A DNA stretch of 64,000 bases from Nitrospiraceae bacterium (GCA_021373015.1 JAJFTJ010000014.1:136323-200322), one strand, 5' to 3'. Counted from the stretch's first letter, positions 22,566-24,479 are shown. Notes: a model not told the origin generated them from the sequence alone. Translations and numbers: made by a program.

Positions 22566-24479
22566 TCACGCATCAATCGCAATATTGATTTTTAGGTTCT
22601 TTTCTTCCTCTCCAATTTTCAAAAATTCCCTTGCAGCGAGATTAACTTTATTTTTTGTCGGAGATTTCATGAGCAGAGAATATTCCTTCTGACCTTTTTT
22701 TGTCATGGAAAGTGACGGGCCGAGAATTTCCATATCCTCATTTTCTTTTAAGAGCTTCTGGATTCTGTCTTTTACTTTTTTCTCGTTGTAATCCCTGCCC
22801 TTGAAAGTAATTATCGCAAGCTTTGAATATGGAGGATATAGCATTGCCTTTCTCCTGCTCAGTTCTTCATTGCAGAATGAATCATAATCATAGTTTCTTA
22901 AAAACCTGTAAACATCATTCTGCGGCATTCTGGTTTGCAGGAATATCCTGCCTTCAGGCTTTACTCTGTCAGCAATGGCGTATATCTCCTGATATGCCTT
23001 TTCTGCAGACCTAAAATCAGGAAGGTTCAGGTAAAAATCTGCATTCAATACAGCTGCCATGCCTAATCCTTCATGTGTGTCATGCAGATTAAGTCTTTTT
23101 GTGAGAAGTTTTGTGCCGAGCAGTATTGCCTCGCCTTTTATCATCTCAGAGAATGATTCTAGGTCTGCCTTGCCTTGTATCTTGTCGCTGTCGAGCCTTA
23201 TTGGCTGGATATTGAAAAGTTTTTTTATGCTCTCTTCTATTCTCTGGATGCCGGCGCCTGTGAGCGCAACCTTAAAACTTTTGCATTTTGAGCATGAATC
23301 AACGATTTTTGTTTTGATACCGCAGTAACTGCATCTCAATGATTTATCTTCATTGTGCAATACAAGCGGGATCCCGCATTTGCTGCATGTCTCTATATTT
23401 TCGCACTCTTTGCATGAGAGCATCGAGTATCCTTTTTTATTTATCACGAACATTATCCGCTCGTTCTTTTTTATTGCTGATGAAGCAGCGTCAACAACTG
23501 TTTTTGAGAGATTGGGGTTTGGCTGTTTTTCATTGTACATGTTCACGATTCTTATAGCAGGTTTTTTGAGAATGGCCGATGGTTTCAAAAGTGTGTATTT
23601 ATTTTTTTTAGCATTATATATGGATTCAATTGACGGACAGATTGAGGATAGAACAACAGTGGTTTTTTCAAGAAGCCCCCTCATTACAGCAATGTCTCTT
23701 GCATTGTATCTGAAGCCTTCCTCAGTTTTATAAGAGGTGCTCTGCTCATGCATAACAATAATCATGGAAGGATTTTTCAGAGGGGCGAATATTGCAGAGC
23801 GTGTTCCGAGCACAACATTGCATTCACCGGAAATTATCTTTGAGTATGCTTCTGAACGTTGTCCTTTAGTCACACTGCTGTGTAGAATACAGAGCTTTTC
23901 TCCAAATATTTTTTTAAGATATGGCGCAATATGATTAAGCTGTACTATCTCAGGCACTAAAACAATTGCCTTCATATCAGGCTTTAAAAGTTTTGTCATG
24001 AATGAAATTTCATACAATGAGCTCGGCGCATGCATAAGAAAAGTTTTATATTCTTTTTGTGATATGGATTCATTGATTTTCGAGAGTATATTTTCATCTA
24101 CATCAAGGAGAATCTCTGGAATCTCAGTTTCTTTTTCTGCTTTAACAGACTTGCGCTGCTTCACTGGCTTGAACACTTCTTTTGTAAGCATGCTTTTTAG
24201 AACAATGCCTTTGTTTGCGATGTAATAGTCTGACATCCATTCGAGCAGATTTAAAAGAGGCGGCTCAAGCATAGGCGATTCACCATGAACCTCGCTTATG
24301 GTTTTTATTTCACCTTTTATAGTTTTTGAGGATTTGCCGAGTATAATTCCAAATGATATATGTTTTTTTAACGGCGCAGAAACGAACATGCCGGGCAGGG
24401 CTTTTTCATTCAGATGTTCAGGACATTTGTAAGTCAAAGGACCAAGATTAAGAGGAAAAACAACATCAATAAATTCCAT
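22566..24479 (-). CDS. priA: PriA-like primosomal protein N' with degenerate ATPase/helicase motifs
   Basis: The overall PriA architecture is present: an N-terminal 3'-DNA-binding-like region (VVFPLNLGPLTYKCPE) and the Cys-rich zinc region (CKECENIETCSKCGIPLVLH...LRCSYCG...CSKC). I placed the start at ATG 24479 rather than the tracked GTG at 24530. The Walker A/B equivalents are replaced (see findings). Confidence 0.85.
   Translation of the reverse strand: MEFIDVVFPLNLGPLTYKCPEHLNEKALPGMFVSAPLKKHISFGIILGKSSKTIKGEIKTISEVHGESPMLEPPLLNLLEWMSDYYIANKGIVLKSMLTKEVFKPVKQRKSVKAEKETEIPEILLDVDENILSKINESISQKEYKTFLMHAPSSLYEISFMTKLLKPDMKAIVLVPEIVQLNHIAPYLKKIFGEKLCILHSSVTKGQRSEAYSKIISGECNVVLGTRSAIFAPLKNPSMIIVMHEQSTSYKTEEGFRYNARDIAVMRGLLEKTTVVLSSICPSIESIYNAKKNKYTLLKPSAILKKPAIRIVNMYNEKQPNPNLSKTVVDAASSAIKKNERIMFVINKKGYSMLSCKECENIETCSKCGIPLVLHNEDKSLRCSYCGIKTKIVDSCSKCKSFKVALTGAGIQRIEESIKKLFNIQPIRLDSDKIQGKADLESFSEMIKGEAILLGTKLLTKRLNLHDTHEGLGMAAVLNADFYLNLPDFRSAEKAYQEIYAIADRVKPEGRIFLQTRMPQNDVYRFLRNYDYDSFCNEELSRRKAMLYPPYSKLAIITFKGRDYNEKKVKDRIQKLLKENEDMEILGPSLSMTKKGQKEYSLLMKSPTKNKVNLAAREFLKIGEEEKNLKINIAIDA

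Follow-up and report, generated by a model that had tools for sequence, protein, structure and literature searches.

A PriA without helicase motor motifs, conserved across the order Thermodesulfovibrionales, as a likely scaffold for replication restart

The window analysed here, a stretch of 64,000 nucleotides from a Nitrospiraceae bacterium (GCA_021373015.1 JAJFTJ010000014.1:136323-200322), carries on its minus strand the gene priA. The encoded protein is a PriA orthologue but does not have the status of a PriA helicase: the motifs of the ATP site were replaced, and the fold and the DNA-contact motifs were retained. The same state was found throughout the order Thermodesulfovibrionales, with the gene under purifying selection. 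We consider it likely that a single, vertically inherited PriA was turned into a pseudohelicase, that is, a motor-less scaffold for fork recognition and DnaB loading. Such a protein would have neither ATPase nor helicase activity, and would bind forks and contact DnaB, DciA and SSB.

An intact PriA with a replaced ATP site

The priA open reading frame (ORF) was intact, with an ATG at 24479 and a stop codon at 22566-22568 (window positions, minus strand), where an earlier note on this DNA had placed them. The surrounding open frame comprises 654 codons (22566-24530, minus strand), and a GTG at 24530 lengthens it upstream; the ATG at 24479 was favoured as the start because orthologues begin with MEF[IV]DV and this start is kept across them. 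The 637-residue product scored 355.4 bits against TIGR00595 (NCBIfam priA), well above the curated cut-off of 230.35, and covered model positions 17-505 of 509, compared to 590-667 bits, from position 1, for the canonical PriAs of the phylum. Its best sequence matches in the PDB were the PriAs of E. coli and Klebsiella (E = 1e-63). The generic DEAD and Helicase_C Pfam profiles matched only at or below threshold. The 3'-DNA-binding domain (3'BD), the Cys-rich zinc region and the C-terminal domain were each recognised by their own Pfam profile (Table 1), and the eight cysteines that bind zinc, which lie in the insert of helicase lobe 2, were invariant in 43 aligned PriAs. The collinearity with E. 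coli PriA described in the earlier note was confirmed in the translation, which contains VPEI, LHS, GTRSAIF, SYKTEEGFRYNARD, the Cys-rich region, DFRSAE and LQT; the retention of the zinc cysteines and of the N-terminal DNA-binding region, also claimed there, agreed with these profile matches.

Motifs were compared by hidden Markov model (HMM) alignment, by HMMER alignment to the E. coli PriA of the PDB, and by multiple alignment with canonical Nitrospirota PriAs, and motif coordinates were checked by translating the corresponding stretches of the window. The substitutions that the earlier note had read by eye were upheld by the HMM, PDB and multiple alignments. In the multiple alignment the Walker A motif was aligned residue for residue with its replacement (HGVTGSGKTE with HAPSSLYEIS), the catalytic lysine being changed to glutamate; the PDB and TIGR00595 alignments begin only after this position. 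The change (K157E) constitutes a fixed difference from canonical PriAs, and glutamate occupied the site in at least 88% of the order. In motif II, DEEH was paired with MHEQ, so that the Mg-binding aspartate was gone and the following glutamate retained. For motif VI, TQVAGRAGR was aligned with YAIADRV in the multiple alignment, with a three-residue deletion taking out the second arginine, and HMMER set QVAGRAGR of E. coli PriA against the region EIYAIADR. The loss of motif VI reported earlier was thereby upheld; its register had been off by three residues, which does not affect the conclusion. The motifs of superfamily 2 (SF2) ATPases that characterise a PriA helicase, I (GxGKT), II (DExH) and VI (QxxGRxGR), were thus absent from their sites. 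A P-loop or DExH box restored elsewhere by a proper alignment would have overturned the earlier claim; no GxGK[ST], DExH or QxxGRxGR was found elsewhere in the protein, and regular-expression searches of the clade relatives were also negative.

The motifs that contact single-stranded DNA were intact, namely Ia (VPEI), Ic (GTRSAIF), the aromatic-rich loop (SYKTEEGFRYNARD), which has a DNA-binding role (PMC5175346), and PDFRSAE. Conservation of these four was 0.75-0.78 in the order vs. 0.70-0.92 in canonical PriAs, whereas conservation of the ATP motifs fell sharply (Table 1).

The overall PriA fold was retained in an alignment-based AlphaFold2 model (predicted local distance difference test, pLDDT, 90; predicted template modelling score, pTM, 0.90). 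Foldseek returned as the top match the fork-bound E. coli PriA 8fak_H (TM score 0.86, E = 2.7e-52), followed by the winged-helix deletion PriA 6dcr; the best match outside PriA was Mfd (E = 1e-9). The protein shares with the canonical PriAs of E. coli and K. pneumoniae (8FAK, 6DCR, 4NL4, 6DGD) the sequence of domains, from the 3'BD through two RecA-like lobes, with the Cys-rich insert in lobe 2, to the C-terminal domain, in addition to the fold, DNA-contact motifs and zinc cysteines. It differs from them in having no ATP site and in a region between 3'BD and lobe 1 that is approximately 75 residues shorter than in E. coli (query residues 95-157 vs. E. coli 97-234), where no winged-helix domain was modelled. 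Since the canonical PriAs of sister orders are equally short (656-659 residues), this shortening is unconnected with the loss of the motor.

Table 1. Features of priA and of dciA in the window, with conservation values where available (Thermodesulfovibrionales against canonical PriAs)
Feature	Window position	Strand	Evidence	Conservation, canonical	Conservation, Thermodesulfovibrionales
priA coding sequence, 637 residues plus stop; sole PriA of the genome	22566..24479	-	ORF; TIGR00595; PDB match; conserved ATG		
3'BD, residues 6-98	24186..24464	-	Pfam PF17764, E = 9.7e-17; modelled pLDDT 86-97		
Former Walker A / motif I, HAPSSLYEIS for HGVTGSGKTE	24003..24032	-	multiple alignment; translation	0.93	0.61
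Former Walker B / motif II, IIVMHEQS for IVVDEEHD	23739..23762	-	PDB and multiple alignment; translation	0.83	0.68
Aromatic-rich loop SYKTEEGFRYNARD, kept	23694..23735	-	conservation	0.70	0.75
Former motif III, LSSICPS for LGSATPS	23631..23651	-	PDB and multiple alignment		
Cys-rich zinc region, C356, C359, C365, C368, C383, C386, C396, C399	23283..23414	-	Pfam PF18319		
Altered motif V, LGTKLLTKR for IGTQMIAKG	23094..23120	-	PDB (GTQML/GTKLL) and multiple alignment	0.89	0.63
Former motif VI, YQEIYAIADR and 3-residue deletion for FQLxTQVAGRAGR	22965..22994	-	multiple alignment; translation	0.79	0.46
PriA C-terminal domain, residues 550-636, full length	22572..22832	-	PF18074, model positions 1-92 of 95		
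dciA, likely DnaB-loading partner	9473..9910	+	PF05258, 55.6 bits at window 9491-9715 (G000:C21:145813-146037)		

Conservation of the motor-less state and its boundary

The genome (1.69 Mb in 22 contigs, 100% complete, approximately 39% GC) contains only one priA. No second, canonical priA was found in it by TIGR00595 search, the other matches being weak and lying in ORFs of the size of Mfd, RecG and other SF2 proteins, and none was found in the sampled genomes of the order. The gene tree placed the Thermodesulfovibrionales clade with canonical PriAs from the class to which it belongs. The idea of an additional paralogue that took on a new role, one of two readings offered in the earlier note, was rejected on account of the sole copy in a complete genome and of this tree position.

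The state is shared by relatives, as the earlier note had proposed to check: 30 orthologues drawn from its family and order all showed replacements of this kind. For close pairs in the clade, Nei-Gojobori ratios of nonsynonymous to synonymous substitution (dN/dS) were 0.12-0.20, and 0.11 for a canonical pair; priA is under purifying selection. These data bear directly on the idea that priA is a decaying gene, or its substitutions an assembly or sequencing artefact, a caveat that had accompanied the original claim. Apart from the missing motifs themselves, only the insertion that abuts the 3' end of the gene (see below) speaks for it. Intact ORFs with the same substitutions, on the other hand, recur across independent assemblies of at least 40 genomes within the order, the dN/dS ratios are low, and the full-length model is confident, with a C-terminus unaltered by the insertion. 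We therefore give this idea practically no credence; the comparative data have already refuted it.

The boundary of the motor-less state was located by TIGR00595 scores in a survey of 91 genomes of the class, including 43 of Thermodesulfovibrionales and 47 from other orders. The scores were bimodal, with no overlap between the order and its sister orders. One match per genome, scoring 156-368 bits and with its start between model positions 14 and 48, was obtained in 42 of the 43 Thermodesulfovibrionales genomes. Among the other orders 45 of 47 genomes were matched and two gave no match; full-length matches there scored 498-639 bits, nearly all from position 1, and in one assembly (G188) priA was in two fragments. 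Two PriAs of other orders (L075, L076), read directly, contained GSGKT, DEE[HQ], GSATPS, GTQM and QLAGRAGR. From the score boundary and the canonical state of the sister orders it follows that loss of the motor took place on the Thermodesulfovibrionales stem, with no regain among the sampled genomes. As a separate observation, priA of one class member (G195:C54:5750-7375) has an in-frame TAA, for which a frameshift, a real split or an assembly error is possible.

When the survey was extended to 151 genomes of Nitrospirota, most families were found to have canonical PriAs (590-667 bits), and one (f24) a divergent but motif-complete PriA of approximately 440-470 bits. Two families scored 330-385 bits from position 14-17 and were without motifs I, II, III and VI: f23, which is Nitrospira/Nitrospiraceae, and f26, small-genome Nitrospirales (rows L069-L072, L077-L081 and L096-L126). 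Their degenerate state was conserved across the genus Nitrospira. This second group belongs to the same phylum and lacks the same motifs, and its former P-loop also begins with LHAP. It is distinguished by its own replacement residues (LHAPWEHRL, WVEGEED, SAHPS and DAxxLAxP), by the GTQ of motif V, which is kept, and by longer proteins of 744-791 residues. In a 49-row mixture-model tree, the rows of which did not include the PriA of Deinococcus-Thermus, the group stood apart from the Thermodesulfovibrionales clade (branches 97* and 98*). A single degenerate clade was not rejected by the approximately unbiased (AU) test on a 24-row subset (p-AU 0.50 with LG+G4 and 0.17 with LG+C20 PMSF), and the gene tree is no basis for claiming two losses. 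Two losses in Nitrospirota are the more parsimonious reading from taxonomy, given that the sister orders within the class are all canonical. Family f17, also of Nitrospirota, has a canonical priA that is broken up in three genomes (G076:C2:114601-116149, G119:C9:91677-93246 and G108:C21:132008-133531): in two of them it forms a pair of neighbouring ORFs divided at the same model position (241), and in the third it lies in four pieces. Frameshifts, genuine splits and assembly errors are all possible causes.

Beyond the phylum, a search of 1.84 billion cluster representatives, run exhaustively with HMMER, yielded 18,486 PriA-like matches. The 46 best-scoring clusters were without any of the four canonical motif patterns, apart from a stray GxGK[ST] in two of them, and the same held for nearly all of the nine clusters ranked next. 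Further wholly or partly degenerate forms were scattered among canonical ones at lower ranks. In the metagenomic representatives P0070, P0074, P0091, P0104, P0130, P0148 and P0151, DE(E/Q)xD and GSATPS were kept, and the P-loop and the motif VI arginines were lost. Such partly degenerate PriAs may represent intermediates or independent routes to motor loss.

The insertion at the 3' end of priA and neighbouring genes

The insertion that the earlier note had placed at the 3' end of priA was recovered as a 1.19-kb block bracketed by an imperfect direct repeat of 24 nt (21373-21396 and 22563-22586; 83% identical, with a 14-nt identical core, 1190 bp apart). The block has a GC content of 55-59%, against approximately 39% for the genome, and contains a gene for an S-adenosylmethionine (SAM)-methyltransferase (21655-22401), which was not found within approximately 1.5 kb of priA in any of 28 relatives. 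The downstream repeat copy encodes the last seven residues of PriA and the stop (..NIAIDA*); the orphan copy, beside a gene for a cation diffusion facilitator (CDF) transporter, reads ..LNAAIDA*. Orthologues of the family end in ..AIDP or ..AIDA, so the C-terminus here is the family norm and the insertion left PriA full-length. The block has the appearance of foreign DNA that entered priA within its last codons and left the reading frame intact.

Two further genes of the window had unusual domain arrangements. A single ORF at 17613-18632 (plus strand) joins a CoaE dephospho-CoA kinase (residues 3-179) to a riboflavin kinase domain (residues 211-332), an unusual fusion. The CDF cation-efflux transporter at 19966-21351 (plus strand) showed three matched ZT_dimer stretches instead of one.

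A proposed restart scaffold without a motor and its alternatives

Of the replication partners that the earlier note had suggested searching for, dciA was detected within the window at a distance of 13 kb from priA, and the genome also encodes DnaB and a single SSB with the acidic tail ..DLEPF. No DnaC-type loader, PriC, DnaT or second SSB-fold (PriB-like) gene was found in the genome searches. Matches to the IstB profile were considered as a DnaC-like loader and rejected, as they lay in a 473-residue ORF, taken as DnaA by size only, and in the sigma-54 activator of the window.

A PriA pseudohelicase is not a new idea. The PriA of Deinococcus-Thermus was singled out among 100 PriAs from 18 phyla (PMC4504706), and that of D. 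radiodurans was without ATPase and helicase activity, yet bound forks and DnaB (PMC4504706; Lopper, Boone & Morrow 2015); only in Deinococcus has the idea been proven experimentally. In the literature on PriA with Nitrospira or in phylum-wide surveys, nothing was found beyond this case (PMC4504706) and a 2017 review (PMC5778457). The two systems agree in many respects. In both, the protein is the sole, lineage-wide conserved orthologue with non-consensus Walker A and B motifs (here with lysine changed to glutamate at the P-loop and aspartate to H/Q at Walker B) and the rest of the protein kept, DciA is present and partners of the PriB, PriC and DnaT type are absent from the genomes, and the proposed role is fork binding with direct recruitment of DnaB. 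In Deinococcus-Thermus, however, the P-loop is still recognisable, with the lysine of GKT changed to arginine (PMC4504706), whereas here it is unrecognisable as a whole, the lysine being a glutamate, motifs II, III, V and VI differ as well, and the motif VI deletion removes the second arginine. The phylum is a different one, Nitrospirota, and the loss of activity is predicted from sequence. The PriA described here is thus a more extreme and sharply bounded case of a known kind.

That restart by PriA is possible without a motor was also indicated by E. coli K230R (priA300), which is without ATPase, helicase and translocase activity, still assembles the primosome and supports near-normal growth (PMC5778457). 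K230R is, unlike the natural multi-motif loss in this genome, a single engineered substitution, and it works through PriB and DnaT with DnaC, whereas this genome has DciA and no detectable PriB, DnaT or DnaC.

The non-catalytic, DNA-binding or scaffold role put forward in the earlier note was supported by the combination of lost ATP motifs with retained DNA motifs, zinc cluster, 3'BD, C-terminal domain and fold under purifying selection. Most likely, PriA would recognise abandoned, stalled or repaired forks through the 3'BD, the DNA track of the helicase lobes and the Cys-rich region; the parts that would serve this are those kept here, i.e., the 3'BD, motifs Ia and Ic, the aromatic-rich loop, the zinc-bound Cys-rich region and the C-terminal domain. 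It would probably also bind the acidic tail of SSB. Acting as a static platform, it would allow DnaB to be reloaded with DciA onto the SSB-coated lagging-strand template, and the lagging-strand arm would not be unwound at the expense of ATP, as in E. coli K230R in the PriA-PriB pathway and as thought for D. radiodurans PriA. This mechanism was considered the best supported because, in each case without ATPase and helicase activity, K230R supports restart (PMC5778457) and D. radiodurans PriA binds forks and DnaB (PMC4504706).

Several points weigh against a static scaffold. The inactivity of the protein was deduced from its motifs, the Walker B glutamate was retained (xxEx) in all orthologues, and the replaced motifs were fairly conserved within the family (SSICPS, GTKLLTKR and HAPSxxYE), which might mean that the pocket has acquired another use and has not simply decayed. 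For E. coli PriA, a second nucleotide site, weaker than the first, has been reported (PMC5778457). Finally, K230R depends on PriB, and no further gene with an SSB fold was found here; the partner set therefore differs from that of the only genetically tested helicase-dead case.

The glutamate, the conserved replacements and the second nucleotide site proposed for E. coli PriA (PMC5778457) would be accommodated by a PriA that is still an NTPase or translocase through a non-canonical or relocated site, either the second PriA site or a pocket rebuilt from HAPSxxYE, xxEHS and SSICPS. We regard such an activity as very improbable: the former P-loop has neither a glycine-rich loop nor a lysine or arginine, glutamate having taken the place of the lysine; the Mg-binding aspartate and the arginine finger of motif VI are gone; GxGK[ST] occurs nowhere in the proteins of the clade; and conservation dropped for the ATP motifs and not for the DNA motifs. 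A protein neofunctionalised outside restart, e.g., as a DNA-binding regulator or repair factor, with restart handled by other proteins, is also improbable. Its stem branch is long (0.97 substitutions per site) and, as PriB, PriC and DnaT were not found, there is no classical primosome context for a role in restart. Most bacteria, however, lack these three proteins yet use PriA (PMC5778457), and the protein is the only PriA of its genome, an orthologue by tree position in which the 3'BD, the Cys-rich region and the C-terminal domain were all kept and conserved. A non-canonical site and a new use of the partly conserved former pocket are both less likely than a scaffold for fork recognition and DnaB loading.

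A broader and more speculative generalisation, towards which we are doubtful, is that the motor-less PriA represents a recurrent and stable alternative design of the restart primosome and not a peculiarity of Deinococcus. It would have arisen on the Thermodesulfovibrionales stem, again or by shared descent in Nitrospira/Nitrospirales, and in many uncultured lineages, typically in DciA genomes without PriB, PriC and DnaT, and the former ATP pocket (lysine to glutamate, HAPSxxYE and SSICPS) might be re-used to bind DnaB, DciA, SSB or a regulatory ligand.

PriA is usually treated as a near-universal restart helicase, to which Deinococcus-Thermus has been the only published natural exception (PMC4504706), and motor-less PriAs carry the name helicase by homology in annotation. 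A whole order of sulfate-reducing and magnetotactic Nitrospirota, together with the nitrifier genus Nitrospira, has a PriA without motor motifs; nature therefore does without unwinding by PriA more often than published work indicates. With its sharp boundary, the order provides a comparative system for studying what replaces unwinding and how PriA passes DnaB to loaders of the DciA type.

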